DNA of 64,000 bases from an uncultured delta proteobacterium (lineage in GTDB: Bacteria > Desulfobacterota > Desulfomonilia > Desulfomonilales > Desulfomonilaceae). The position numbers and the translations under genes were made by a program. The DNA is taken from positions 448,001-512,000 of the forward strand of contig CAWBKB010000001.1 in the NCBI GenBank assembly GCA_963789265.1, written 5' to 3'. The notes below the pieces were generated by a model that saw nothing but the letters and a program-made list of their open reading frames with translations, was not told the origin of the DNA and searched no databases. Below are positions 2,342 through 41,614 of this stretch, piece by piece (the stretch's first letter is position 1; the number at the start of each line of letters is the position of its first letter).

Positions 2342-4754
2342 ATGCTCGTCAGCGTGAACTGGCTGAAGGACTTCGTGGAAATCGATCGATCCGCTGAGGA
2401 GATCGCCGATCTTCTTACCATGGGAGGTATCGAGGTGGAGAGCGTGTCCCACGTGGGGCACGAACTTGAAACAGTATTTATTGGCAAGGTGGAAGAAACA
2501 AGTGCTCATCCGAAGTCCGAAAAGCTCAGTCTGGCGCGCATCAGTCTGAACGAGCGGGAGGTTACGGTTGTTTGTGGTGCCCCCAATCTACGCGCAGGCC
2601 AATTAGTCCCATACGCGGCTCCCGGTACTGTTCTCATATCCGGGCAGAAGATAGAAGAGACGGAAATCAAGGGCGAGCCTTCCTCGGGAATGCTTTGCTC
2701 GGAAAAAGAGTTGGGTTTGGGAGACGACGCGTCGGGCATTCTCGTTCTGGATGAATCTTGCAAACCCGGAATGTCTCTTACAAAAGCTTTTCCGCTCGTA
2801 AAAGATGCGATCTTGGAGATATCGGTCACGCCCAACCGCGGGGATTGCCTTTCGGTCCTCGGCGTTGCCCGAGAACTGGCGGCTCTCACAGGAGCCTCAT
2901 GGAAAGTTCCGGAGGTGCCTGTTGCAAAAGGGCCGGCCAGTGTCAAGAAGAGGATAATCATAGAAGTCCCGGACCCGGACCTCTGTCCGCGTTATGTGGC
3001 GACCATGGTTGAAGGCGTCAAGATCGGACCGTCTCCTCTGGAGATCCGTCTCAAACTGATCAGGGCAGGAGTACGTCCGATCTGCAATGTTGTGGATGCC
3101 ACAAATCTTGTTCTCATGGAATGCGGGCAACCGCTCCACGCGTTTGACTACGACCTGCTGGAAGACCGGCGGATCGTGGTGCGCCGCTGCAACCCTGGTG
3201 AGAGGTTCGTGACTCTGGATGGGGTCGAGAGGCGGCTGCCCGAGAATGCTCTGATGATCCGGGACGGCAAACGATCTGTGGCTCTCGCTGGAATCATGGG
3301 CGGGATGAATTCGGAGATTACAGAAAACACTTCCTGCGTGCTAATCGAGAGCGCCTGTTTCGAGAGGTTCGGCATCAGGCGAACTGCCAAGGCTCTGGGA
3401 ATGAGTACCGAAGCCTCATACAGGTTTGAACGAGGAATAGACCCCGAGGGCACGATCTGGGCTGCTCACCGGGTCGCACATCTTATCTGTCAATTGGCGG
3501 GAGGGACGGTTCTATCCGGCCGCGTCGATGTTTATCCTGCTCCCATTGTGAGGCCTCCAGTTTCTGTCAGACCAAACAAAGTGAACAGCCTGTTGGGTTT
3601 GAGCTTGAAGGACGAAGAGATTTCTTCCTATCTGATGAGGCTTGGAAATACCGTCAAACAAGCCGCTGGGATGAACGGAGAGATAGTGAGTGTTCCTCCT
3701 TCCTGGCGCTGGGATTTGGATAGAGAGGAGGACATGGCAGAAGAGGTGGCCCGGCTCCACGGTTTTCAAAATATACCCGTATCCATGCCCTGCTACAGAT
3801 CCGCCCCGGATAGGAGCGGTGAGAACTTGAACCGCATTCGACGGGTGAATACGTTATTGAACGCCTCCGGTTTCTCCGAGGTGATTACAATGTCCTTCGT
3901 ATCCGTGGACGCGGCACGTGAGTTCAGCACTAAGTCGGGAGACCCGGGAGAATTGATCCTAATCAATCCTCTAACGGAGGATTATGTTGCGATGCGGACT
4001 TCACTTATCCCAGGGATTCTGGCCGTGACGAAGCGAAACATAAATTTTCGTTCCGAGAATTTAAGGCTTTATGAAGTGGGTAAGACTTTTTCGCCGGTGC
4101 CTGGAGACGAACTCCCCAGAGAAGACCTGAGATTGGCAGGGATAGCTACGGGAGCGCGATACCCGGAACTCTGGAACCTTCCGCGCGATCAGGAAGTCGA
4201 TTTCTACGACGTGAAGGGGGTGCTGGAAAGCCTTTTGGAAGGCTTGGGTGTCCAGGAAGTGGTCTTCGTGCCATCGAATGTCCCCTTCCTGCATCCGGGC
4301 AAATCCGCGGACATGATCCTCGAGGGCGAGAAACATTGGTTTTCTGGGAGAGGTGGCACCCGCGAAAACTCGGGAATACGATTTGCCTGGAAGAACTCTC
4401 ATGTTTGAGGTTCTCCTGGAGCCTCTGTTCGTTCGGATGCGCAAGGAGAGAGTTTTCACGCCTATTCCTCGCTACCCTTATATAGAGAGGGATTTATCAT
4501 TCATCGTTGAAGAAAAAGTTTCAGGTGATATGATTAAACACTTGATTTCACGTTTGGCACATGATATTATTGCGTCCGTGATCCTATTCGATTTGTATCG
4601 AGGAAAATCCATTCCGGAGGGCTGCCAAAGTATGGCCTTTCGGGTCCGATATCAGGCAGAGGACCGCACTCTGACTGATGAGGAAGTCCAGGAGGTCCAT
4701 TCTCGTGTGGCGGACGCCCTTGTAAGGGAATTGGGCGCCACAATGAGGGAATGA
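2342..4754 (+). CDS. pheT: phenylalanine--tRNA ligase beta subunit (apparent +1 indel near 4331)
   Basis: VVCGAPN, SGMLCSEKELG, TPNRGDCLS, GQPLHAFD, ASYRFERG; C-terminal FDX-ACB domain (RDLSF..FDLYRG..DRTLTDEEV) in the 4353..4754 frame. Confidence 0.97.
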
Positions 4755-10159: not shown

Positions 10160-11608
10160 TTAACACGCGGTATCCGGCTCCGCCATCTCCACCGTTAGGG
10201 AAAGGGTGGACGGGATCGCTCCGCAGCGAGGGCAAACTTCTATGGGAGCGCCATTGTCGAAACCGCAAAGTGGGCACGCCGAAGGAAACGTGTGTGTCCC
10301 ACCTTTCCCTTCGGTCAATTCCATGATTTCGCCATCAAGAGACATGACAAGACTCGCCAAGTTTCGCACAACGATATGAAGCATCTTGAGTTGCAACAAA
10401 GGATCCAGTTCCTTGAAAAGTAAAGCATTTATCTGAAGCAACTTGCAATCCTCTTTGGCTATCACGCCGGCAGACCTTTTACGCCTGGCAAAAGCCCCAA
10501 TTTCTCCGAAACAAGCTCCCGGCAGGAAATCCGACAGCTTGCGAGCTCTCTTGACCACTTCCACGTTGCCCTCGAGTAGGACGAAGAAGTTCGAGTCACT
10601 TTCATTCTCGCTTATTATGTGCTCGCCGGCCCGGCATGTTATGAACTCACTCACTTTTATCAATTGCTGGATCTCTTCCTCAGAGAATAGAGAGAACATC
10701 TCGAACTTCTTTAGACTTTGGACTAATTCCTTGTCCGGAGAAATAGCTGTGCGTAATCCCGATCTAAGGCATTCCCCGAGCGCCGTCGCCAGATCGCCGG
10801 CGCGTGGGAAGCGCCTGACGGGTGACTTTTCCAGACAACGTCCCACAATCACGTCAACTTCCTGCGGAATCTCAGAGTTGATTCGCCCCGGGGGAGGAAG
10901 ACCTTCCGTACAGATTTTGGCCAACGTCTCTTCGGTGCTGGCTCCTCTGAAAGGCGCCTGCCCGGTTAACAGTTCAAATAGAACCAGCCCAAGTTGATAG
11001 ATGTCTACTCTATGATCTTGTTCACGACGCAGGACTTGTTCCGGGGCCATGAACCGCGCAGAGCCGATAAGAGGTAGGCGATGGCCTTTCAGGTGCTTCC
11101 TGAATCGAGCGATGCCGAAATCAGTGATCTTCGGGACACCTTGAGCCGATAGGATAATGTTCTCGGGTTTGATGTCGCGATGAATGACGCCCTTCTCGTG
11201 AGCATAATCCAACGCCAGAGCCAACTCATAAACAATCTCTATAGATTTCTTGATGCTGAACGGAGACGTCCGAATGTGCTCCAAGATGGTCTTGCCGTAA
11301 ATGAACTCCATAACCATGTAGAGCAAGTCACCTTTCTTGCCCACATCGTAAATGACCACAATATTAGGATGCAGGAGAGCCCCCGCGGTCTGAGTCTCCA
11401 AGAAAAAGTCCCTCATGACATTTTCTTTTGAGACCTCGATGCCCGGCAATGTCTCCAACGAAAAGGTCTTAATGGCAACGGGTCTTCGGATAATCTTGTC
11501 CATTGCCAGGTATACCTGCCCCATTCCCCCTCCGCCCACATAGCGGATGATGTCGTAGCGTTTGATTCTGTTCAGGGTTGCGTGCTCAATCTGATTCATC
11601 CGATTCAT
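10160..11608 (-). CDS. Hanks-type Ser/Thr kinase with cyclic-nucleotide-binding domain and C-terminal double zinc ribbon
   Basis: GGGGMGQVY, VAIK, HRDIKPEN, DFG, MAPE; cNMP-type GACFGEIGAF..RSAGVIA; CPLCG..CPRCG. Confidence 0.92.
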   Translation of the reverse strand: MNRMNQIEHATLNRIKRYDIIRYVGGGGMGQVYLAMDKIIRRPVAIKTFSLETLPGIEVSKENVMRDFFLETQTAGALLHPNIVVIYDVGKKGDLLYMVMEFIYGKTILEHIRTSPFSIKKSIEIVYELALALDYAHEKGVIHRDIKPENIILSAQGVPKITDFGIARFRKHLKGHRLPLIGSARFMAPEQVLRREQDHRVDIYQLGLVLFELLTGQAPFRGASTEETLAKICTEGLPPPGRINSEIPQEVDVIVGRCLEKSPVRRFPRAGDLATALGECLRSGLRTAISPDKELVQSLKKFEMFSLFSEEEIQQLIKVSEFITCRAGEHIISENESDSNFFVLLEGNVEVVKRARKLSDFLPGACFGEIGAFARRKRSAGVIAKEDCKLLQINALLFKELDPLLQLKMLHIVVRNLASLVMSLDGEIMELTEGKGGTHTFPSACPLCGFDNGAPIEVCPRCGAIPSTLSLTVEMAEPDTAC

Positions 11609-12952: not shown

Positions 12953-13609
12953 TCACGGAGTATCGTTCGTAGGCAAAGCAGCATCGTCAACGAAAGGTCG
13001 AAATGGTCGCCTTATGACCCAGCGCTTCCCTCCCGCGGGCAGACGCCCTATCAAGTGACGTCCCAAATGTATTTGCAATTCCGAACCTCGCATGCTGCCA
13101 AACCGAACAATCCTTGTTGGCATAAGGGACAAAAGCCATGCACCCAATTTCTTCAGCAGACCCGACCCGGGAGTTGCAGGCCTGGCATATAATCTCCTGT
13201 CGATAAAGCTGCGCACGTTCATAATGCGGCCGATCGCCCGGCCCGCAAGGCCGCCGTATATTCTCCGCGACTCTTTCCCTCTGTGTGCTGATACTATTCG
13301 GCCTAAAATCCAACTTGGTTCCACGACGTACGGGTCGACAAGATTGTTGTTGTCTCCTCTGGTGAGTACTCCTTGAGCGTCGCTGGAAACCACCCGATGG
13401 ACTATCGCTTGCCCACCATCAGGATGAATGAACAAGATGACGTCTCCGCACCTAATCGTCCTGCCGTCATACGGGACTATATGGAGGATATCTGAAGCTC
13501 GGAATGTGGGATTCATGCTGGGACCGGCATAGAACATCCATTGCCCGGTTAGGAACCGAAGACAACTGACTTTGGCAGGCGCATGATCTGGCGAGCAATC
13601 CATATTCAA
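12953..13609 (-). CDS. S24/S26 signal-peptidase-like protein (candidate RiPP leader peptidase)
   Basis: GPSMNPT, GDVILF, IVHRVV, TRGDNN..DP; Ser-His type S26 motifs. Confidence 0.8.
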   Translation of the reverse strand: MNMDCSPDHAPAKVSCLRFLTGQWMFYAGPSMNPTFRASDILHIVPYDGRTIRCGDVILFIHPDGGQAIVHRVVSSDAQGVLTRGDNNNLVDPYVVEPSWILGRIVSAHRGKESRRIYGGLAGRAIGRIMNVRSFIDRRLYARPATPGSGLLKKLGAWLLSLMPTRIVRFGSMRGSELQIHLGRHLIGRLPAGGKRWVIRRPFRPFVDDAALPTNDTP

Positions 13610-13661
13610 TCCATGTAACCGCAGAGTGCGCAGAGAAGCAAAAGTGTATTCAGTTCAGCGT

Positions 13662-13763
13662 GTAGGATGTGCTGAACCCGGCCAAGGCAGGGGAAGCGCA
13701 TCGGCCGCGTCCGCGCTCCGTCTTACACAATCGATGCGCTTCGCTTCGCTCAGCACATCCTAC
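13662..13763. repeat. 102-bp REPIN-like element, copy A
   Basis: GTAGGATGTGCTGA...TCAGCACATCCTAC; near-identical copy at 26875-26976. Confidence 0.85.
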
Positions 13764-13892
13764 AAAATTACTAGATCGGAAGTGTCCTCGCTGTTACAGA
13801 CCGGAATTTATCATGTCTTATCGCGTGAAAGTTGAAAAAATCTCAGCGTGCACAGCGTTCTCTGCGGTGAATATCACGTTCTCCGCGGTGAA

Positions 13893-14813
13893 CTATTTCC
13901 GATCCAATGCCTTCTCTATTCCTTCCCAGAAGCGACCGGTGAGGCTCGCTCGCAAAGTGAAGGTCGGCACGGCTTTGGCGAGATCGCACGAATTCGCAAA
14001 TAGCTTCAAATTGTTGTCTCTTTGCACGTCGTTTTCCGGACGTCGCCACATTCGCCCGCACACCTGACCTGCCGACTGGTTGATCCTTGCCGCGGCTCGG
14101 GCCTGGCCGATGCGGGCGACATCGTCGCTCTCGCCCTGGTCCAAGAAGAAAATCGCAGAAAGTGGAGTCGGTCTCTGCACGTTCCAAGTCTTCTCGGCCC
14201 TCCGAAAAAGGTAATCACTCCATGTCGGGAACGGATGTGCATGGTAAGATCCGGATGCCGAACGCACTACGAGTGTCTCGTCATCACATAAAACCTTCCA
14301 AGATTGGGGAACGCGTCGGCAGCACGTGCTCTTGCCTCGGCCTCCACTGGCCGCAATCAGAATTCCCTTACCGTCATGCTCGACCAAAGCCGCGTGGAGT
14401 GGCGTACCTCCCTGGTCGATTGCAGCCCGATAGAAGGGGAAAACCGCCTGCTGCATGGCCAGGATTGCCGGATCGTGATGCCCTATATCCAACAGTTCAC
14501 AAACCATGTCAGGTACGTCGGGATTGGACCAGATACGCAGTGCTAAGAGATCGTGCATCTTCCAACCGCTGTGCGGAAGAGCGGATGGCTTGGGTAACAG
14601 AGGGAGGGGATTGGCAGTTTGACAACGGCCGATTCCTTCACCGCATTTAACGATGCTTATTTTTCGGAGCCCATCTGACTTTCCCGGCCTCAAAGTCATG
14701 ATTGAAGCCAGTTGGTTCAGCCAGGCCGATGTACCGTTGCTCGCAACGAGGCGCCATGCAAGGCCGTCATTCAGATGGAGGATATAGGAGTTGTCACCAC
14801 ATGTTTTCTGCAT
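13893..14813 (-). CDS. scmC: SynChlorMet cassette ScmC-like protein (HPr-kinase-related P-loop protein)
   Basis: PLHAALVE..GILIAASGGRGKST..LCDDE..AHPFPTWS; located next to PqqD and two rSAM/SPASM genes. Confidence 0.75.
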   Translation of the reverse strand: MQKTCGDNSYILHLNDGLAWRLVASNGTSAWLNQLASIMTLRPGKSDGLRKISIVKCGEGIGRCQTANPLPLLPKPSALPHSGWKMHDLLALRIWSNPDVPDMVCELLDIGHHDPAILAMQQAVFPFYRAAIDQGGTPLHAALVEHDGKGILIAASGGRGKSTCCRRVPQSWKVLCDDETLVVRSASGSYHAHPFPTWSDYLFRRAEKTWNVQRPTPLSAIFFLDQGESDDVARIGQARAAARINQSAGQVCGRMWRRPENDVQRDNNLKLFANSCDLAKAVPTFTLRASLTGRFWEGIEKALDRK

Positions 14814-14874
14814 CAGTTATCTCAGCATCAAGCTTCTGTCAGTCGCTTTACGAGCTTGCTGACGAACTGGTTGA

Positions 14875-15081
14875 TTAGCCTCCATAAAAACCTGAAGAGC
14901 AATTCCTTGCGCCCCCACCATTCGGCTTACAGAATCCGCCCCCAGGAAACACTCCGTAATTCTTGCAAACCCCGGCATCCCCGCTCCCCAACGGGTTGCA
15001 AGCCCCTGAGGCGTACAGGTCATCCCGGTCGTCCATGTCCACTATCACGGGTTGGGTGTACGGAGGTCGCGAATTTTCCAT
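14875..15081 (-). CDS. candidate RiPP precursor peptide (68 aa, YxxP leader, Cys/Gly-rich core)
   Basis: GGAAGGA RBS; ATG overlaps the scmF TGA; MENSRPPYTQPVIVDMDDRDDLYASGA-CNPLGSGDAGV-CKNYGVFPGGGF-CKPNGGGARN-CSSGFYGG. Confidence 0.75.
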   Translation of the reverse strand: MENSRPPYTQPVIVDMDDRDDLYASGACNPLGSGDAGVCKNYGVFPGGGFCKPNGGGARNCSSGFYGG

Positions 15082-16220
15082 CAGCCGCATCCTTCCATAT
15101 TCTCCGGGCGATTTTGTCCCGGTGCAAAAAGCCGTGTCGTAGGAAACAGATCTCTCTTTGCAGCTTCCTCGCAGTACCAGTGTGGCGCCCAGAGGCTCTT
15201 GGAACGATAGAAATTCTGGGCCACACAGTTTCCGAGGCAGACACCCTTCATCAGGCAGTCACCGCATATTCCTTGCAGACGCCTCGGCAGGCCATTTCTC
15301 AGGTTTTGAAGAATAGGATTGTTGTTCCAAAGATCTTCCAACCGATCACGACCTGCGTGGCCGAAGACAAGCTCCGGCACGGTTTCTCCGATGCCGCAAA
15401 GCGCGTACGAACCATTACCGAGCACTCCAAGTATGCCCAATATGCCACATTGCCCGCCCCCGTCTCCTTGCTCTCCGAACATCTTGTTCAATGGACGAAA
15501 GGCCATGGGATGGCTGTAAAACAGCCTGAGCCTTGTTTTGGCAGAAAGTTCAGTCTCGACCCAGCGGCCCAGTTCCACTAGTTCGTCCATGGAGAGCGTC
15601 TCACCGGCCTCGTGCAGGCGTTCGCCTCGTGCCGTGGGCTGAACCATGTTGAACTTCACCGAGCCAGCGCCGAGCGACTCGGCCAGCCGAACCACTTGTT
15701 CCATCTGATCTCTGTTTCGGCGGATCAGAGACATTATCACTTGCGGTCTGATGCCTACGGCGACAAGATTCTTGATCCCGCTGAGGGCGGCATCGAAGCA
15801 TCCCCTAACCCCTCTCATCCATTCATGGGTTTGGGCATCCGAACCGTCCAGGCTCACCGAAACGGACGGGCCTTCACAAGCCTTTATCTTTGCAGCTAAT
15901 TCCGCGCTTAAAGCCACCCCGTTGGTTTCAATGGTGAGACTCAACTCCTGACAGCGGAGATAATCGAGGATTTCGCCTATTCGGGGGTGGATCAATGGCT
16001 CGCCGCCGGTTAATTTGACTGCGGAAAGACCCAGCAGTATGGCCTGATCTATGATGTGGAGAAACAACTCGAAATCAAGTGCAGTGGCTGATGCGCCTTC
16101 GCTCTGGTAGGTGGGTGCTATCCAGCAGTGGCGGCAACGGAGATTGCACTTTTCAGTCAGATAGAAGTAGAGTTGATTTAGAGGAAATTCGCGTTTAGTT
16201 GTCATAGGTTGAGCAGACAT
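15081..16220 (-). CDS. scmF: radical SAM/SPASM enzyme, SynChlorMet ScmF-like
   Basis: YFYLTEKCNLRCRHCWIAP, LTGGEP, SPASM Cys cluster CGDC-x5-C-x3-C. Confidence 0.85.
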   Translation of the reverse strand: MSAQPMTTKREFPLNQLYFYLTEKCNLRCRHCWIAPTYQSEGASATALDFELFLHIIDQAILLGLSAVKLTGGEPLIHPRIGEILDYLRCQELSLTIETNGVALSAELAAKIKACEGPSVSVSLDGSDAQTHEWMRGVRGCFDAALSGIKNLVAVGIRPQVIMSLIRRNRDQMEQVVRLAESLGAGSVKFNMVQPTARGERLHEAGETLSMDELVELGRWVETELSAKTRLRLFYSHPMAFRPLNKMFGEQGDGGGQCGILGILGVLGNGSYALCGIGETVPELVFGHAGRDRLEDLWNNNPILQNLRNGLPRRLQGICGDCLMKGVCLGNCVAQNFYRSKSLWAPHWYCEEAAKRDLFPTTRLFAPGQNRPENMEGCG

Positions 16221-16468
16221 AAGTTGGTAGGACAGGCATCCTGCCTGTCATTCCCAATCGACAGGCAGGATGCCCCTAGGCGTTAAAATAAGCTTCAAGT
16301 CCTCTTCGTCCCGGAGGGACGTGCTGATAATAGCCCGGCGATTTATCGCCGGGAATGAACCGCCAAGAGACTTTTCTTCGTCCCCGAGGGGCGCCCGAAG
16401 GATGCATCCTTCGGGCGCCCCTCGGGGACGAAGATTGAATCATTGCTTATCGGTCACCCGGCAATGAA

Positions 16469-18144
16469 GAGAGTGTCTCAAAACGGTTGTAGTGGCACGA
16501 TGACGACTCTCGGGGTGGTAGGGTGCGGTTAATCTCGCACCTTGGCCTCCCTTGTCTCCGACGAGCCGGGGCCGGCTATGAGTATGCCTCAGGCAGCCAT
16601 GAGTCACTCTCCGTCCTGATGTCTTAGGCCGCGGTTAGCACCAGACGCCCCGTCAGCCAATGGCTGTAGAGCTTCTTGAGATTCAAGGTGGCGCACATCA
16701 AAGACCATTGAGCCTTCGCATTGGATAATCCGGACACGGTCCACCGTCTAAAGTCCAAGTGGCTCTTTATCCATGCAAAGACCGGCTCAATGATCACCTT
16801 GCGGGCTCGGAGTAGCGTCTTGCTTTCCGGGACCTCCCGTTTCTTGCGGTGACGCTCAACTGCGTCACGATAGATGTTAATGTCTATGAGACGGCCATTC
16901 TTGCTCTTGCTGCACTTCCACCGTTCAGGACACGTCAAGTAGTCCCGGCATCGATACCGCCGGATCTCGTTTCCGTTTTTTCCTGTGACTTTCTTCTGAA
17001 GAAAGTTCAGCGATGCGCCTTGCGGACAAATACAGACGTCTCGCTCTTGGTCGTAGACGAACTGGGAAGCGTGATAAGGGTCCCATTGAGCGCCTTTTTC
17101 CGCAGCGGACTCTCCCGACGACTTGGCGACCAAGACCTCGTACTCCTTCTCTTCGGCCAACGCGATTTGAGCCGATGCGAAGTATCCTGCGTCCGCCACG
17201 GTTTCCTCTGCGGTTGCGCCCAAATTTTCCTGAACTCGATCCAGCATGGGAACAAGCTGCCCATTGTCATTGCCTTCGTCGACCACTTCCTCAGCCACAA
17301 TCATGCCGCTTTGTTGGTCTGCCACCGCTTGAGCATTGTAAGAGGGCTCAGTAGACCGCCGGTTCTTCATGTACCGGGCATCCGGCTCGCAGGGATGGAC
17401 GACCTTCTTGTCAGTCTTATCCAATTCCTGCAAGGCCTTCTGTATCCGCTCCTTGCGTTTCAACTCGTCCTGCAGGGCTTCGGGAAGACGCCATTCGCCA
17501 CCCTCCTCTTGCTCGCACCTCTCTGTCTCCGTCATGACGTCGGCAACGCACTTGTCCAAATTCTCAAGCATCCGCTCCAACTGATCTTGGTTCTTGAACT
17601 TCTCCCGAGATGATCCGACAGGGATCTTGGTTCCATCCAATGCATGAACCGCCATACCTATCAACTCGGCTTTGACTGCCACTTGAACCGATTGTTTGAA
17701 TATTCCCTTGAAAACCTTCTTGTTGTCCCTCCAGAATCGCCACAGGGTATTATGATCCGCTGCATTCATACCCGTCAGCCAAATCAATCCCATGTTCTCC
17801 ATGCATGCCTTCTCAAGCTTGCGCGATGACCTGATTCTGCTGAAATAGCCGTAGAGCCATGCCTTCAACAAAAGATCGGTACTATAGGGAGGACGGCCCG
17901 TTTCGCCATTCGGAACTCGAAAACCCAGCACCTCCAAATCCAAGGAATCCACAAAGTCTCCTATGAAGCGCGCTGGATGATCAGGCCCTATCCAGTCATC
18001 TATAGCGGGCGGAAGCAGAAACACCTGCTTGTAGTCGGCTCTGATTTGCGGCATAATCCTTTCCCTCTCCGATTCTCTTTTCACATCTCATTAGTAGAAT
18101 CGGTTGAGAATCGCGAGCCCAAAATCGACTTTTGAGACAGTTTC
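16469..18144 (-). mobile_element. IS1182-family insertion sequence (1676 bp)
   Basis: TIRs GAGAGTGTCTCAAAA / TTTTGAGACAGTTTC; TGAA duplication inside CCCGGCAA-TGAA-TTGCCGGG palindrome. Confidence 0.92.
16624..18054 (-). CDS. IS1182-family DDE transposase
   Basis: LLPPAIDDWIGPDHPARF, GRPPY..SSRKLE, LDGTKI, YNAQ, ADAGY, IEPVFAWIK; ORF intact. Confidence 0.95.
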   Translation of the reverse strand: MPQIRADYKQVFLLPPAIDDWIGPDHPARFIGDFVDSLDLEVLGFRVPNGETGRPPYSTDLLLKAWLYGYFSRIRSSRKLEKACMENMGLIWLTGMNAADHNTLWRFWRDNKKVFKGIFKQSVQVAVKAELIGMAVHALDGTKIPVGSSREKFKNQDQLERMLENLDKCVADVMTETERCEQEEGGEWRLPEALQDELKRKERIQKALQELDKTDKKVVHPCEPDARYMKNRRSTEPSYNAQAVADQQSGMIVAEEVVDEGNDNGQLVPMLDRVQENLGATAEETVADAGYFASAQIALAEEKEYEVLVAKSSGESAAEKGAQWDPYHASQFVYDQERDVCICPQGASLNFLQKKVTGKNGNEIRRYRCRDYLTCPERWKCSKSKNGRLIDINIYRDAVERHRKKREVPESKTLLRARKVIIEPVFAWIKSHLDFRRWTVSGLSNAKAQWSLMCATLNLKKLYSHWLTGRLVLTAA

Positions 18145-18212
18145 TGAATTGCCGGGCTACTATCATTGAGCCCCTACAGGGCTCACAGAGGGCAGGCTCG
18201 TTATTTTAACGC

Positions 18213-19392
18213 CTATGGGCAGGACGCCTGTCCCACCGTCAGGTTTCGTTCTCGCTGCCCGCATGTGTCATGGCTTAGCGATGTGGTGACCGGATCCTCA
18301 TTCGGGAGAACGCCACCGGCCTCCAGGAAACGTTTATAGCAGGAATCAGGGCTCGGATGATAGGCATGACCTGTCATAGAATCCGCCATTGCGGGACAAC
18401 CGCCTCTGCAAAAGGCCACATACTCGCACCCACGACAAAAATCAAAATCTGCAAGGTGGATGGATGATCGATCCCGAAAACGATTAAGTTCCTCGCTGTT
18501 CAGCCACACTTCAGCCACCGAGTCAACGTTGATTCGGCCTAGTTCAATGTTTGACAGTTGCACGCAAGGGACTATGACCCCATCCGCCCTCACCGCCAAT
18601 TTGGTCATCGGGCCGCCGCAGCTCGTCAATTGTCCTCCACCGGGCAGCCTCTTCAACCCCTTTTCCCGCGCGTGTTCTATGTCGAGCCATGCCTGCGCTT
18701 CAGCCAGCGGTCCAGCCGTGGCGCTGATGCGGTCACCATATTTCTGTGTGAGCTTCAAGAGGGAGTCCATAGCCAGACATCGCTCTTCAACGGTAAGCTG
18801 GACCTCATCGGTGTTTTTCCGGCACAATCCTAAATAACCGGCCGAGTTTGTTGAAAACCCGGGAAGGCCAACTACTTCCAGGAGCAACTTAGAGACTTTC
18901 TCCAGGTCCTTGACGTTTCGTCTGTGAATTGTAACTCGGACGGACGCGGGGAGTCGATGTTCAAGAAGCAGCCTGAGGCCCTCCACCGCGCGCCGAAAAC
19001 TTCCATCGCCTCTGAAGCTGTCATGGGTAATCGGCATCGAGCCGTCAACAGAGACCTGAATGAAATTGCATCGGCCTGTGGAAGCTAGAAAGGCCGCGAG
19101 TTCACGTGTGATCAGAGTGCCGTTGGTGAGGAGGGAGAACCGCATCCGATTCCGTACGATCCCGTTCACGATTTCCCTGAAATCTTCACGAATGAAAGCC
19201 TCGCCCCCTTGCAGGCAAACCTCCATCACAGAGCAATCACGCAATTCTTCGAAAAACTTTAGCCATTCTCCGGTCGGCAGGTCTTCTTTAACGTCGCTTC
19301 CGCTCGTGAAATGGCTGCAGGTACTTGCAGCGCAGATTGCACTTGCCGGTGATCTCGATATCGACAGATCGCGGCGTCCTCATAAGAGTCAT
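18213..19392 (-). CDS. scmE: radical SAM/SPASM enzyme, SynChlorMet ScmE-like (apparent +1 indel near 19320)
   Basis: MTLMRTPRSVDIEITGKCNLRCKY/CSHF restores CxxxCxxC across the shift; LQGGE; SPASM CRGCEYVAFCRGGCPA. Confidence 0.85.
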
Positions 19393-19399
19393 GTCAGTA

Positions 19400-19687
19400 T
19401 CAATTGGCTTCGACCTCGTAACCAACAAAGCCTCGTGCTGCGAGGCCCTGAACAAATTCTTTCAGATGCGCGCCGGCTTCTTCCGGAACGTTTTCGAATT
19501 GATCCTGTAACTCGAGAAGAATCTCGCCTTCGGTGTGATTTCCATCAAGGCGTTTCCAGATGAACACACTTACAGGGTTCAACCCGAGCACCTTGCCCGA
19601 ATCCGGGTCGAAGAGCAAGGCCCACTCGTCAAATTCCTCACGCAACACAGTCAAGGGATTGGCTATCGGCCTGTCCGCTTTCGACAT
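19400..19687 (-). CDS. scmD: PqqD-family peptide chaperone / RiPP recognition element, ScmD-like
   Basis: VLREEFDEWALLFDPDSGKVLGLNPVSVFIWKRLDG..FVQGLAARGFV; GGAGG RBS. Confidence 0.88.
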   Translation of the reverse strand: MSKADRPIANPLTVLREEFDEWALLFDPDSGKVLGLNPVSVFIWKRLDGNHTEGEILLELQDQFENVPEEAGAHLKEFVQGLAARGFVGYEVEAN

Positions 19688-19846
19688 GGAGTCAGTTGCC
19701 TCCACCGCGCAACGAGGATACCCGCGAAAGAGAGGGATTAACCAAATGATAACATTAGAAATCTTTTAAATCAAGCCGGGCTTGCCGCAGGCAGTAACGA
19801 ATCAGCACACCAGTAACATCTTCCCGAATACATTGGCTGGAAAAAA

Positions 19847-20120
19847 GTAGGGGCAGACCCATGCGTCTGCCCCGCGCGGCCACGCGGGGCCACCCTGGAT
19901 GTCATCTATACCCATTGCCAAAAGTTTTCTCGTTCCCGGGCTCCGCCCGGGAATGCCTGTCAACGAGGCTCTGCCTCGACCACAATCGTGAAATAAGGGC
20001 AGTTTGCGGGCAGAGCCCGCGCTAGGTATGGATTCCCAGGCGGTCCCGCGAGACGTGGGATTTCACTGTAGGGGCAGACCCATGTGTCTGGCCCGGGCGG
20101 ACACGGCGGTCCGCCCCTAC
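19847..20120. repeat. cluster of GTAG-type REP-like palindromes
   Basis: GTAGGGGCAGACCCATG.GTCTG..CCC and GGGCGGACAC..GGTCCGCCCCTAC; related to 26617-26669. Confidence 0.7.
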
Positions 20121-27167: not shown

Positions 27168-30100
27168 TCAGTTCACCTCACCCACCAATATGAACGGTGC
27201 CCAATAAAAGGGATGGTCATAACCAGCCTTACGGATTTCTTGCCTGGCAAGTCGTAGCGCTTCCTGCTTATTCTTCCCTTCTTTCAAGTGCTTGAAGAAG
27301 CTCTCCACGAGATTAACAGAAGCTTTCTCAGATACGCTCCAGAGGCTCATCAGAACACTTTTCGCACCCGCGTACTGGAATGCCCTGCCCATTCCCATTG
27401 TGCCCTCGCCTGATATTTGCCTCCCCAGGCCGGTCTGGCACACGGTCAGCGCGGCTACGTCGCAGTTGAGCTTCAAGCCCAGGACTTCACTCAATCGCAA
27501 GAAACCGTCGTGACCCTTCTGTTGATCGAGCAGAGTCAGCACCAGCACCGGTTCCTGGATACCCGGCAATTCCTTGCCGAAATATCCGTGGGTGCCGAAC
27601 ACCACGGACCGATAAGGTGTGAGGTCTTTGTCGAGAAGAACAGATTTTTTGGCCTGCATTCCTTCATAGAGGTCGGTTTTCGGATCGTCCTTCTTTAAGG
27701 ATTCGCCGAGTTGCGCGGTTAAGGGCAGTCTCGGCCAGGTGAGCCCCTCCTGAATCTTCATGGACATAAGGATTTCTTTGGGAAGGTTGTTGAGGAGTTT
27801 CTCCTTCTCCTGGCGGGCAAGTTTGATAAAACGAGGATCATCCTGGGAAAAAACTGGATCGACCAGTGCAAGCGTCTTTTCCCCGGGGTTGCGCTGTTTT
27901 TCGAGAGTACGTGCCAGGGTAAGGGCCGTGATGGACTGGTAATAGGATATGGGATTGCGACCGCCGAAAAACTCAGCACCTGAAGTAACAGCCGTTTTAT
28001 CGCCCTTTACAATTGTTCCTTTGTCGTTGAGCACGAGCATCTCGAACGGGACTACTCCGAGCGAACCGTCAGGAATGATAATGAGGGGGGTATCCTTGGG
28101 CAGTGCCGGCAGGACATCCGCGAGAAGCATGTCGGAGAGTTTCTTACCGGCAGCAAAATCAAATGCTGCAAGTTTCTTTCTGAGAGAATCGTCGGGTCCC
28201 AGATCCAGAGGTTCCCGGAACTTCCTGACGAGACCGTCAACCTCTTTTCTCGCAACCGGCTTGAAAAGACATTTTACCAGGCTCTTTCCCTTCGTGAGAT
28301 AGATGATGATTCCCGGGTCCGTGACCTGGTACGCCAATACCCATTCGTTATCTTTCAGGGCAGATTGATCCAAACCCATTGGTTGAGGATACTTGGTCGC
28401 GGCAAAGAAAGGATACTGTTTGCGGAGCATCTCAATATGCGCGGCAAGTTTCTCTTTTGCCGTTTTAACCTGGGGCTCAAGCGCGGCTATGACCTCTTTG
28501 TTCTGCTTCTCGTACGCCTTCTGGAGGTTCTTGCTCAAAGCGGCGAGACTGTCATTAAGCTGCGAATCTTTTTCCAGTACATCCTGTGGAATGTGCGGAG
28601 CAGACCCTTCTGCTCGCTTTGAGATGCGTTCGGCAAACATACGGGCTCGGGTGTATTCGGATTCCTTTAATGCATCCAGAGGCTTGTTCAGCTTCACCAG
28701 GTACTCTGGCAAGTCCCTCGTACGGGGCGGTCCTGTAAAAGCCGCCGACTCTGACATTGTAGAACTCCGCCCTCTCGGAAGGGTTCAGGCCGGCACGCAG
28801 ATCTTCGGTACGATCAATGGCTTTGCGAAAATAGTCCGCGGCCCCAAGGTTGTCCCACATCTTCTCGTATGTCATTCCCAGGCCGGTATAGGATATGAAG
28901 AGATTCGCTGAATCCTGGTTCTTCTCAGCGCTTTGCCGAAGTTTCTCGTAATACTCTTTTGCCTTTTCGTAATCCGCTTTGAGCAGATTGAGCCTACCCA
29001 GGGAGCTGTTGTAGTTAGCTTCTTTTATGAATGGCTCGGCATTTGCGATCTCTCCCTTGTCCAGGTAGAGATTACCTATCTTATCCTTAGGTGAGCCTGT
29101 TGGAACTCCGATTTTGACGTAGATTGCAAGCCCCTTCTGAAAATTCGTCAGAGCTTTGTCGTACTCACCCCAGTATTGATATACGGTCCCCAGATTGTTC
29201 AGGGTGCGCCCTTCGATGTTCACGTCCCCAATCTTTCTGCTGATAGCCAGCGACTTCTCGTAGAATTCCACTGCCTTGGCATACTGACCCCAATCCTTAT
29301 ATAAGTTCCCCAGGTTGTTAAGTGTCCGTGCTTCACCCGGAATGTCCCCGAACTTTCTCTGAATGGCGAGAGATTCTTCGTAGAATCTCAAGGCCTTCTC
29401 GTACTGACCGCGTTGCTCAGAGACAGCTCCCAGATTGAGCAGCGAGCCTCCTTGCCCGCTGATGTCACCCAGCTTTCTCTCGAGTTCCAGGCATTTCTCA
29501 AAGTACTCGACTGCTTTCTCATATTGACCCTGTCCACGACAGACCTCTCCCAGGTTATTTAGGGAAATTCCCTCCCCTTTGAGGTCGCCAAACCGTCTCG
29601 CGATTGTCAGAGATTTTTTGTAATACTCCACCGCCTTCGCATTCTGATTCCAGGTGTTGTAGACTATCCCGAGGTTGTTCAAGGTGACGCCTTCGCCCTT
29701 AAGGTCTCCACGCCTTTTCTTGATTGCCAGAGATTGCTCGAAATGGTCAACGGCCTTCTTATACTTGCACAAATCCAGATAGGCATTGCCTAAAGCGTTG
29801 AGCACCGCCGACTCTCCCTTGGTGTCAGTAAGCTTTTTCTTGATGGCCAATGATTTCTCGTAGTATTCGATTGCCTTCTCACACTGACCCCACCGCTCGT
29901 ACATATGGCCAAGATCGTCCAACGTTTCCCCTTCCGCCTTGATATCACCAAGCTTTATCGCAATCGCCAATGACTGCTCGGAGCATTCCACGGCATCTTG
30001 ATATCGCCCCCAATGTCTGTATATCGCTCTCAGGTTGCGTAGGGCAGCCATTTCACCCTTCTGATTCTTGATTGTTCTGGCGATCTCTAACGATTTCTTC

Positions 30101-30633
30101 TCGTAGTGCGCAGCCTTCTCATACTTATGCCAGTCCCTGTAGAGAATCCCCAAGCAGTGGAGAGCCGCTACTTCTTTTTTAGGCCCCTGGTACTTCTGGG
30201 CTATTTCCAAAGACTTCTCGTAATACTCAACAGCCTTTTCATACTGATTCTGCTTAGCGTACACAAAGCCTAACCAGGCGACACTGCTTGATTCGATGTG
30301 TCGGTCGCCGATCTTCCGGGCAAGTTCAAACGATTTCAGGTAGTATTCTACTGCCTTCTGGTATTGCTTCTGGTCTCTATATATAGCCCCTAGACTGTTG
30401 CACGCCCGAGCGGCATTTTTCGAGTCGCCAACCTTCTGGTATATGGCCAGGGCCTCTTCGTATTTCTGTGCAGCCTTCTTCAAATCTTCGTTGGAGCGAG
30501 CCTTTTGTTGCAAGGCAAACGCTTCCTTGTGGAGACGTATTGCATCGCGCAAGGATTCGGCCATCAGCGGCGATGAAACAAGGATACAAAGCGCGGCTAC
30601 TATTGCCGGGACAAGAAAGATTCGCTTGAACAT
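27168..30633 (-). CDS. exported TPR-repeat + CHAT (caspase HetF-associated) protease (apparent +1 indel near 28700)
   Basis: signal peptide, about 11-12 40-aa TPRs (LNNLG..Y..A..YYEKSL); CHAT motifs IIPDGSLGVVPFE, FGTHG, LTVCQTG, SLWSV, HPFYWAPFILVG. Confidence 0.9.
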
Positions 30634-40566: not shown

Positions 40567-41614
40567 CTACCAAAGGGAGTAGCGTGTCAGCGCAACAGGC
40601 ACGGAAACGGATCGTTGCGGTCGGACCAAAGTCTGTCTCTGCGGCAAGATGCCTTCCAAAAGCTCCATAAGAAGATCCTTCGCGTTCCCCTTGGCTTGAT
40701 GATCTGTGGCCTGAGCAGTCTGAATCCTCGGTCCTTTTCCCGGTGCGCTTTCTTCTCCGAACAGATAATCCGAGAGAGGAACTGAAACCAGTCCGCGCGA
40801 TTCCACAACATGAAGAATTGCACTCAGGTTCTTCATGGTTTTCGTCCGCTCATGCAGCAGAACCACATCCTTGGCCCTCGCAGCGTTCAGAGAATTTATG
40901 ACCGTAGACGCGGGACGCGGGAACCACGCCAGTTCCATGCGCCAATCGTTGGTATCTAGATTCCACCACGCCATATCATAGTTCAGCGAGGCGAGAACGT
41001 CCTGGCAAGCCTGGTAGTTCGAGCGAGAACCCGCGACGCCATAGGGAAATCTGAAGAAACGATTCTGCCGCTCGGGATCTACCCCTGCTTCATCCAGCAA
41101 CTCACCGAATAAGCGCGTGGGTAGACACAATCTCCTTCTCGGCCCGTTCAGCGGAAATTGTCGAGAAATCCGGGTGGTTGTACGAATGGTTTCCGATGTC
41201 GTGACCTTCAAGAAGGGCCCTGATTGCGAAGTCTCGCAAAGTGGGATTGGTGAGATTGCGACCGATCACGAAGAAGGTGGCTTTATGCCCGCGCAAGGCC
41301 AGGAGATCCAGGATGCCCCCCGAACAGTACGCGGGGCCGTCGTCGAACGTCAAAAACACCGACTTGGCATTCAGATCCGGGCTCCTGATATCCTCTTCCA
41401 ACCGTCTAAACGGGTAGTCGAAAGGAAGGGTCTCGCCGTGTTCGGGCTTCAGATATCCGCCGGGCGTGCTCCGGACAAGGGCGATTTCACAGGCCAGGGA
41501 AGGCCAAAGACTTCCTCCCAGCGCAAGCCCGGCACCCAGGTTGAGGAACTCCCTCCGGGATATTGCACCGGATGCCCCGCGCTCCAAGGACTTGCTGATT
41601 GATTTACTGGGCAA
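40567..41614 (-). CDS. Tat-exported polysaccharide deacetylase, NodB/CE4 type (indel near 41105)
   Basis: SRREFL twin-arginine motif; LTFDDGP, ATFFVIG, GNHSYNHP, FFRFPYG, WNLDTNDW, VLLHE. Confidence 0.87.

Follow-up and report, generated by a model that had tools for sequence, protein, structure and literature searches.

The closest tested system to the one considered here is the linear polyphosphorylated peptide (LPP) pathway of Paenibacillus alginolyticus, encoded by lppA-K-B-S-D-N (Popov et al., Nat Commun 2026, PMC13381572). According to the sections of that report consulted here, LppK adds several phosphates to Ser3 of the core peptide, cleavage by the peptidase LppS requires LppB, the substitutions S29A, H68A or D93A each inactivate LppS, and LPPs are described as limited to Bacillota; the words 'radical' and 'SPASM' do not occur in PMC13381572. 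In paeninodin-type lasso peptide pathways, a homologue of HPr kinase phosphorylates the C-terminal Ser of the precursor (PMC8498205, sections consulted). We here compare with these systems a SynChlorMet (Scm) cassette, a presumptive maturation operon for a peptide made on the ribosome and modified after translation (RiPP), that lies on the minus strand at positions 12953-19705 of a 64,000-nucleotide stretch of DNA (hereafter, the window) from an uncultured delta proteobacterium of the family Desulfomonilaceae (assembly GCA_963789265.1, contig CAWBKB010000001.1, positions 448,001 to 512,000 of the forward strand).

By profile search, the window locus is a Scm cassette, the family match being far beyond what chance would produce. 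The curated NCBIfam set comprises TIGR04248 (ScmD; cut-off 100 bits), TIGR04249 (ScmC; 125 bits), TIGR04250 (ScmE; 400 bits), TIGR04251 (ScmF; 400 bits) and TIGR04252 (ScmA; 35 bits), and four of these five families (ScmD, ScmE, ScmF and ScmC) were matched above their cut-offs, with concordant Pfam assignments for PqqD, Radical_SAM and SPASM. Searched with the same profiles, the whole genome (6.06 Mb in 9 contigs) yielded this one cassette. In order of transcription it reads scmD, scmE (in two frames), a transposase gene, scmF, a Cys/Gly peptide, scmC and a peptidase, of which the cassette genes proper are as follows.

19400..19705, minus strand: scmD, a discrete PqqD-type RiPP recognition element (RRE) of 101 amino acids from a GTG start (TIGR04248, 123.3 bits, E 3.5e-36; PF05402, 58.6 bits)
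18213..19392, minus strand: scmE, a radical S-adenosylmethionine (SAM)/SPASM enzyme in two frames, with its ATG at 19392 and a downstream frame open over 369 codons
15081..16220, minus strand: scmF, an intact radical SAM/SPASM enzyme of 379 amino acids (TIGR04251, 591.7 bits, positions 1-353 of the 353 of the hidden Markov model, HMM)
14875..15090, minus strand: putative precursor peptide in the ScmA position, 71 amino acids from the ATG at 15090, with a YTQPVIVDM leader and a four-Cys core
13893..14813, minus strand: scmC, a P-loop protein of the predicted HprK/PEPCK fold, 306 amino acids (TIGR04249, 318.3 bits, HMM positions 1-292 of 292)
12953..13609, minus strand: predicted soluble leader peptidase of 218 amino acids, similar to signal peptidase I (SpI-like) of the archaeal/endoplasmic reticulum type with a Ser/His active site (TIGR02228, 54.3 bits, cut-off 51.85)

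A sequence-only reading of the same DNA had proposed the SynChlorMet assignment and six minus-strand genes in this order. The assignment was borne out by the profile search, as were the genes and their order, but the reading had overlooked the IS1182-family transposase between scmE and scmF. It had rightly recognized scmE as a gene, although this gene is not one open reading frame (ORF) and its break had been alluded to solely by the phrase 'frame-corrected ScmE'. Its identification of ScmD stood as well (TIGR04248), but not the end given for it at 19687, which is an internal ATG and an alternative start, the ORF reaching 19705. The best matches were the Scm equivalogs rather than NirJ, Ahb or PqqE, which the reading had named as competing assignments, and the small peptide was conserved at the same position in relatives. 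The locus is a further member of the catalogued, chemically unexplored Scm cassette.

The D-E-F-peptide-C-peptidase order recurred in metagenome-assembled genomes (MAGs) of Syntrophales, Chlorobiaceae and Methanocella. Within a first set of 12 related loci the peptidase gene was adjacent in 10 and scmC in 9; in a second set of 17 loci, several of them truncated by contig ends, each was adjacent in 7. The curated SynChlorMet set itself holds no signal-peptidase-like gene, though many Scm copies keep one. Two close relatives, L065 (genome G006) and L067 (a metagenome contig), carry the peptidase gene directly after scmF, with the precursor gene and scmC missing from their usual place.

Searches of the Creative Commons content of PMC and of bioRxiv found no paper for SynChlorMet, for TIGR04248-51 or for radical SAM combined with HprK and RiPP, and none for a thioether/glycine query; the names ScmE, ScmF and ScmC returned unrelated acronyms alone among the matches listed. 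Neither Scm, Syntroph, HPr nor kinase is mentioned in the SPASM review PMC10114670. The sequence-only reading had likewise regarded the chemistry of the cassette as uncharacterised; to this must now be added the 2026 characterisation, as the LPP pathway, of the triad of RRE, HprK-like kinase and SpI-like peptidase (PMC13381572, sections consulted).

For the precursor gene, a start at ATG 15081, giving 68 amino acids, is more likely than that at 15090, since the former overlaps the stop codon of scmF (TGATG) and follows a GGAAGGA ribosome-binding site, and since the homologue in the closest relative (L019) starts alike. L019 has a homologous peptide in this position (62% identity), as does another relative, L021 (50%), and 16 further small ORFs were found at or near this position in 14 of the 29 related loci inspected, yielding together with the window peptide a set of 17 precursors. 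Their common leader carries the motif [YW]xxPx[LIV], after which come a residue that is acidic or polar and then L or M; the cores abound in Cys, Gly, Ser, Asn, Thr and Ala. Among the 128 core Cys residues of the 17 peptides, a Gly follows at +3 in 65% and at +4 in 30%, against a Gly background of 20%; the window core contains four such units (CNPLG, CKNYG, CKPNG and CSSG). Invariant in the precursor alignment were P14 (the Pro of YxxP), C31, G35, C54 and G58, and dN/dS values for the precursor gene were 0.30 and 0.18. In 10 of the 16 aligned precursors a Ser stands immediately after the first C-x-x(-x)-G, a position which the alignment marks as a candidate phosphorylation site.

An orphan ScmA-like peptide was also noted elsewhere in the genome, at C3:365858-366001 on the minus strand (L072, 8856-9056). 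It has a YQKP leader and a three-Cys core, and its TIGR04252 score of 25.5-26 bits falls short of the 35-bit cut-off. No Scm enzymes are encoded close to it; some 4.5 kb away there is a fragment of a CbpB-like radical SAM gene (TIGR04163 positions 2-153 of 428).

The leader motif of the precursor would be the docking site of ScmD. When a profile built from 19 ScmD homologues was compared with the PDB, the best match was LppB (9x8z_B, E 7.4e-09), followed by the lasso RRE TbiB1 (E 3.7e-08); the identity of 9x8z_B as LppB is given in the sections of PMC13381572 consulted. The scmD gene had dN/dS values of 0.198 and 0.059. A predicted complex of ScmD with the leader scored 0.51, against 0.00 for the best control, a result which the tool grades as weak support. 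The mark applied to this score is reached by 116 of 157 solved complexes and by 2 of 215 mismatches, but scores of 0.60 or below are seen in only 18 of the 157 solved complexes and in both of the passing mismatches. At least 96% of the contacts agreed between prediction runs, with a predicted local distance difference test (pLDDT) value of at least 56 for the partner. As RRE-leader complexes have already been solved, the score may reflect likeness only.

ScmC is presumed, by analogy, to be a peptide kinase. No match was obtained for it in the copy of Pfam searched, nor any sequence match in the PDB at E 1, the fold search alone giving matches. Its AlphaFold2 (AF2) model (pLDDT 84.8) superposed on PEPCK over both domains with a Z score of 14.4 and a root-mean-square deviation (rmsd) of 5.1 over 258 aligned residues, and on the catalytic domain of four HprK/P structures with Z scores of 9.2-9.7 and rmsd values of 2.9-3.9 over 114-127 aligned residues. 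The HPr-kinase-like P-loop protein of the sequence-only reading was thus recovered at the level of the predicted fold. Across 15 sequences, H140, G160-K161-x-T163, D177-D178 and H193-P-x-P-T-W-S199 were invariant, with the P-loop reading G-K-[ST]-T, and the P-loop (GRGKST) is intact in the window copy. These conserved positions (His140, the P-loop, Asp177-Asp178 and HPxPTWS) presumably mirror the active site of HprK/P.

The S26-like peptidase proposed earlier proved to combine a predicted signal-peptidase fold with a conserved Ser/His/Asp set. In 16 cassette-linked homologues, S31 (within GxSMxP), H71-R72, G85-D86 and D92 were invariant, the N-terminal membrane anchor was missing, and a C-terminal extension of about 100 residues was shared. 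Residues ~20-118 of the AF2 model (pLDDT 78.2) matched SipA with a Z score of 10.8, E. coli SPase I with a Z score of 10.6 and an rmsd of 1.8 over 95 aligned residues, and human SEC11C with a Z score of 9.7 (27% identity). For the C-terminal ~100 residues, the search with the whole model gave no fold match.

ScmE and ScmF are paralogous enzymes, about 26% identical to one another. ScmF carries an intact CxxxCxxC motif (C25/C29/C32) and seven SPASM Cys residues (C258, 275, 319, 322, 328, 332 and 350), PF13186 scoring 20.9 bits, just below its cut-off of 21.5; in L019, scmF starts at the equivalent of an internal ATG five codons downstream (window position 16205). In ScmE, the downstream frame holds seven SPASM Cys residues (C234, 252, 295, 298, 304, 308 and 327) and PF13186 reaches 39.7 bits, above the same cut-off. 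SkfB was among the best PDB sequence matches of both proteins (E 1.9e-11 for ScmE, 1.1e-10 for ScmF), and the named thioether maturase models all remained far under cut-off, PapB for instance at 65.5 bits of 340 and StsB at 89 of 625. With the maturases of sactipeptides and ranthipeptides (SkfB, AlbA, StsB and PapB), the Scm enzymes share a radical SAM core, a seven-Cys SPASM region, a Cys-rich substrate and a PqqD-type RRE; they differ in that the RRE is a separate protein in Scm and in that each cassette holds two paralogous enzymes.

Set against the LPP pathway, as far as the sections of PMC13381572 consulted describe it, the Scm cassette shares a discrete RRE (LppB being the best PDB match of ScmD), an HprK-like kinase and a [Y/W]xxP leader motif, together with a leader peptidase of the archaeal SpI-like type that has a Ser/His/Asp set and no membrane role, in which S31/H71/D92 of the Scm enzyme parallel S29/H68/D93 of LppS. 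Related Scm loci are also like LPP in having a PF14907 nucleotidyltransferase and an ABC exporter, the window copy being without these N and D genes. Unlike LPP, Scm adds two radical SAM/SPASM enzymes and cores of Cys-x-x-Gly repeats, and the LPP leader consensus beyond YxxPxV is absent from the window precursor. The locus is therefore partly LPP-like but not an LPP cluster, given that no nucleoside triphosphate transferase or MsbA-like exporter flanks it and that two radical SAM enzymes are present. With paeninodin-type lasso clusters, judged by the sections of PMC8498205 consulted, Scm shares an HprK-fold kinase within a RiPP cluster, a PqqD-type RRE that stands as a discrete protein and a leader with YxxP, whereas it is without a lasso cyclase, a B2 cysteine peptidase and a conserved C-terminal Ser in the precursor.

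These likenesses suggest how the cassette may work. ScmD would bind the YxxP motif of the 68-residue precursor, as its likeness to LppB and to lasso B1 proteins leads us to infer; ScmE and ScmF would then act on the Cys-x-x(-x)-Gly repeats of the core, most likely forming short-range thioether cross-links from the Cys sulfur, a step proposed here without precedent; ScmC, if it resembles LppK and the paeninodin kinase in function, would phosphorylate a core Ser; and the anchorless SpI-like Ser/His peptidase would remove the leader presented by ScmD, as LppS does with LppB. The product would be a crosslinked and possibly phosphorylated peptide. Taken as a whole, the explanation comprising a Scm RiPP maturation operon, these steps, a split of the operon by an insertion sequence (IS) and an artefactual break in scmE appears to us reasonably probable. 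A bolder version, which we put forward tentatively and with more doubt than conviction, holds that Scm is a hybrid, in which an LPP-type module (RRE, HprK-like kinase and SpI-like peptidase) is joined to two radical SAM/SPASM enzymes making an i to i+3 thioether micro-ring at each Cys-x-x-Gly of a phosphoserine-bearing chain, and that syntrophs, green sulfur bacteria and methanogens may share in it an undescribed RiPP class whose precursors lie outside the ScmA model.

The break in scmE bears directly on this explanation. On TIGR04250 the N-terminal piece matched HMM positions 1-23 and the C-terminal piece positions 47-358 (482.5 bits), and the genome-wide search gave 529 bits over positions 18-358. 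The two frames are separated by one extra C at about position 19320, which follows codon 24 (TAC) and falls at the third Cys of CxxxCxxC, such that the first two Cys residues lie in one frame and the third in the next; the motif is complete only if this extra base is not real. In the downstream frame, dN/dS was 0.105 against L019, which has the same extra base (dS 0.50), and 0.144 against L021; intact scmF gave 0.156 and 0.125. A dN/dS estimate for the N-terminal piece of 24 codons was discarded, its 18 aligned codons being of doubtful registration. The ScmE match started at model position 17-18 only in the window genome (G000), in G001 (the genome of L019) and in G002 (that of L021), assemblies of few contigs (9, 70 and 40, respectively); it started at position 1 in the 16 other genomes with a ScmE match, among them G005 of the same genus, in frame over HMM positions 1-358. 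The extra base was absent from 12 other distinct genomes aligned at the site and from all three metagenome contigs of close relatives, one of which has an identical local context. In G002 it produces AGGTACT, the reverse complement of the AGTACCT found in the window and in G001, both on the palindrome AGTACT. Across the genome, GTAC(C)TGCAG sites occur 9 times with the extra base and 9 times without it, which is uninformative.

Other genes of the window are split in the same fashion. A change of frame divides pheT (2342-4754, plus strand; TIGR00472 positions 1-659 and 671-798) and a polysaccharide deacetylase gene (40567-41614, minus strand; TIGR02764 positions 4-90 and 97-189), which we take as signs of single-base insertion or deletion errors in the assembly, and in L065, from another genome of the genus with few contigs, scmE is divided into two pieces and scmF into three. 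Contig counts and record names suggest that the MAGs of the genus with few contigs are long-read assemblies. Given the purifying selection downstream, the rarity of the extra base among relatives, its reverse-complement variant on the palindrome and the other split genes of the window, the scmE break is likely an assembly error rather than the mark of a real pseudogene. Elsewhere in the window (27168-30633, minus strand), a TPR-repeat ORF (692 amino acids) and a CHAT-domain ORF (529 amino acids) overlap by 203 nucleotides in different frames and may together represent a single TPR-CHAT protein whose gene a change of frame has divided. In the genome as a whole, CAGCTG occurs 45 times, compared with 600-3300 times for other GC-balanced hexamers, and CTGCAG (792) and ACTAGT (241) are also scarce, which suggests restriction-modification pressure on these palindromes.

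The second interruption of the cassette is an IS at the scmE/scmF junction, with the following features.

16260..18232, minus strand: IS1182-family insertion sequence, long form, about 2 kb (NF033551, 363.2 bits, cut-off 270)
16624-18084, minus strand: transposase ORF of 486 amino acids inside the IS1182-family element

Imperfect inverted repeats of 32 nucleotides, 84% complementary, bracket the transposase gene at 16260-16291 and 18201-18232, and a core of 1708 nucleotides (16457-18164) is present in 18 copies in the genome at 99.4-100% identity. In L019, the closest relative (ScmF 87% identical), the scmE stop codon overlaps the scmF start, with nothing between and no IS. In the window, the final few codons of scmE have given way to about 21 element-derived codons, the ScmE model being nevertheless matched through its final position (358/358), and the element places scmF and the genes downstream about 2 kb away from scmD-scmE. 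It probably uncouples scmF, the precursor gene, scmC and the peptidase gene from the operon promoter.

The region upstream of scmD holds one candidate for that promoter.

19746..19774, minus strand: promoter-like site upstream of scmD, TTGATT-17-TATCAT with TG, by consensus match alone

The count of promoter-like sites in the region was not above that in shuffled sequences. A terminator-like hairpin of the upstream gene lies at 19850-19873, ahead of the promoter-like site. As regards the IS itself, longer copies and many short solo pieces of its two ends (for example C1:306608-306772) are also scattered over the genome, the end-only pieces looking like deletion derivatives of the miniature inverted-repeat transposable element (MITE) type, and a perfect 30+30 nucleotide palindrome stands at 16375-16434, within the IS flank on the scmF side of the transposase gene.

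Both interruptions might mean that the cassette is dead in this genome, scmE being a true frameshift pseudogene without the third cluster Cys, the operon broken by the IS, and no product made. The extra base at 19320 is indeed in the assembly, a search of the downstream frame for an alternative cluster motif found C-x4-C only and no CxxxCxxC, the IS separates scmE from scmF and takes the place of the 3' end of scmE, and the loss of the precursor gene and scmC in L065 and L067 indicates that decay of the cassette occurs in the genus. However, the 369 downstream codons of scmE contain no stop and remain under selection even between two genomes that both have the extra base, as the dN/dS values above attest; other single-base splits are found in the window, including one in the essential pheT; an in-frame version with identical local context exists in a metagenome contig; and all remaining genes of the cassette are intact. 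We accordingly consider a dead cassette unlikely, and favour a maturation operon whose scmE is broken in the assembly only.

The cassette is flanked in the window by map, a Ser/Thr kinase gene, a Mur-type ligase gene and uvrB, the product of the kinase gene (10160-11608, minus strand, two genes downstream of the cassette) joining a Ser/Thr protein kinase to a cyclic-nucleotide-binding domain. In other lineages, 31 of the 52 flanking ORFs from 13 loci were scanned, revealing a PF14907 nucleotidyltransferase in 4 of the 13 loci, a fused ABC exporter directly 3' of the peptidase gene in 3 and a GT2 glycosyltransferase in 3; the loci with one or another of these genes in their flanks were L023, L024, L028, L030, L058 and L022. 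The missing exporter at the window locus, the missing membrane anchor of the peptidase, the cofactor enzymes AhbD, NirJ and MftC as the nearest named families of ScmF (under cut-off), and hosts that record titles describe as anaerobes rich in metal enzymes would all suit a product that is not an exported natural product but an intracellular peptide-derived cofactor or a metal-binding peptide, after the logic of PQQ or mycofactocin. Such a product seems distinctly improbable to us, since core length ranges from about 35 to 122 residues, the Cys count runs from 4 to 15 or more and little of the sequence outside CxxG is conserved, unlike in the precursors of cofactors, and since exporter, PF14907 and GT2 genes are found beside the cassette in other lineages.

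A programmed +1 ribosomal frameshift conserved in the genus, finally, was rejected as an account of the scmE break and is scarcely credible, for although three related genomes have an extra base inside the same 7 nucleotides and the downstream frame is under purifying selection, the base falls at differing positions (after TAC, or before GTAC) with no shared slippery site, neither an in-frame stop nor a rare-codon pause is present at the site, and close relatives with the same context, as well as G005, are plainly in frame.

A number of findings nevertheless weigh against a Scm maturation operon that makes a crosslinked peptide and whose scmE break is artefactual, and these are best considered together. 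With respect to the chemistry, thioether formation by ScmE and ScmF is a guess; the next-best named families of ScmF after the Scm equivalog are cofactor enzymes (AhbD at 133 bits, then NirJ2, NirJ and MftC), all far under their cut-offs; and no experiment on any Scm protein was found in the literature searched. With respect to the substrate and the locus, the curated ScmA model, TIGR04252, failed to match the window peptide even at E 10, a conserved C-terminal Ser of the paeninodin type is absent from the 17 precursors, and the flank scan found no exporter, nucleotidyltransferase or glycosyltransferase gene adjoining the window cassette. As for the frame break, none of the Logan contigs of three DNA runs spans position 19320, the nearest ending at 19337, 17 nucleotides from the site. 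CTGCAG, considered as a possible methylation or error motif, showed a crude frameshift signature at 5 of 792 sites, a lower share than the 1.3-2.2% at 7 control motifs, and AGTACT is not depleted, with 601 unaltered occurrences in the genome when counted against AGTACCT and AGGTACT. Since the genome as a whole shows no tendency to error at CTGCAG or at AGTACT, we found nothing general that would explain a systematic error.

The Scm cassette belongs to those radical SAM peptide systems that have been defined only through comparative genomics. For three of its components, the LPP pathway of 2026 (PMC13381572, sections consulted) now supplies tested analogues, and its putative substrate belongs to a family of peptides with YxxP leaders and CxxG repeats that the curated model largely misses. 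The window copy, interrupted by an IS and with an scmE that is unreliable at the catalytic motif, is a poor experimental template, and relatives in which scmE is in frame would serve better. Together, the LPP analogues and the peptide family specify the peptide to be co-expressed, the residues to be mutated and the mass shifts to be looked for.

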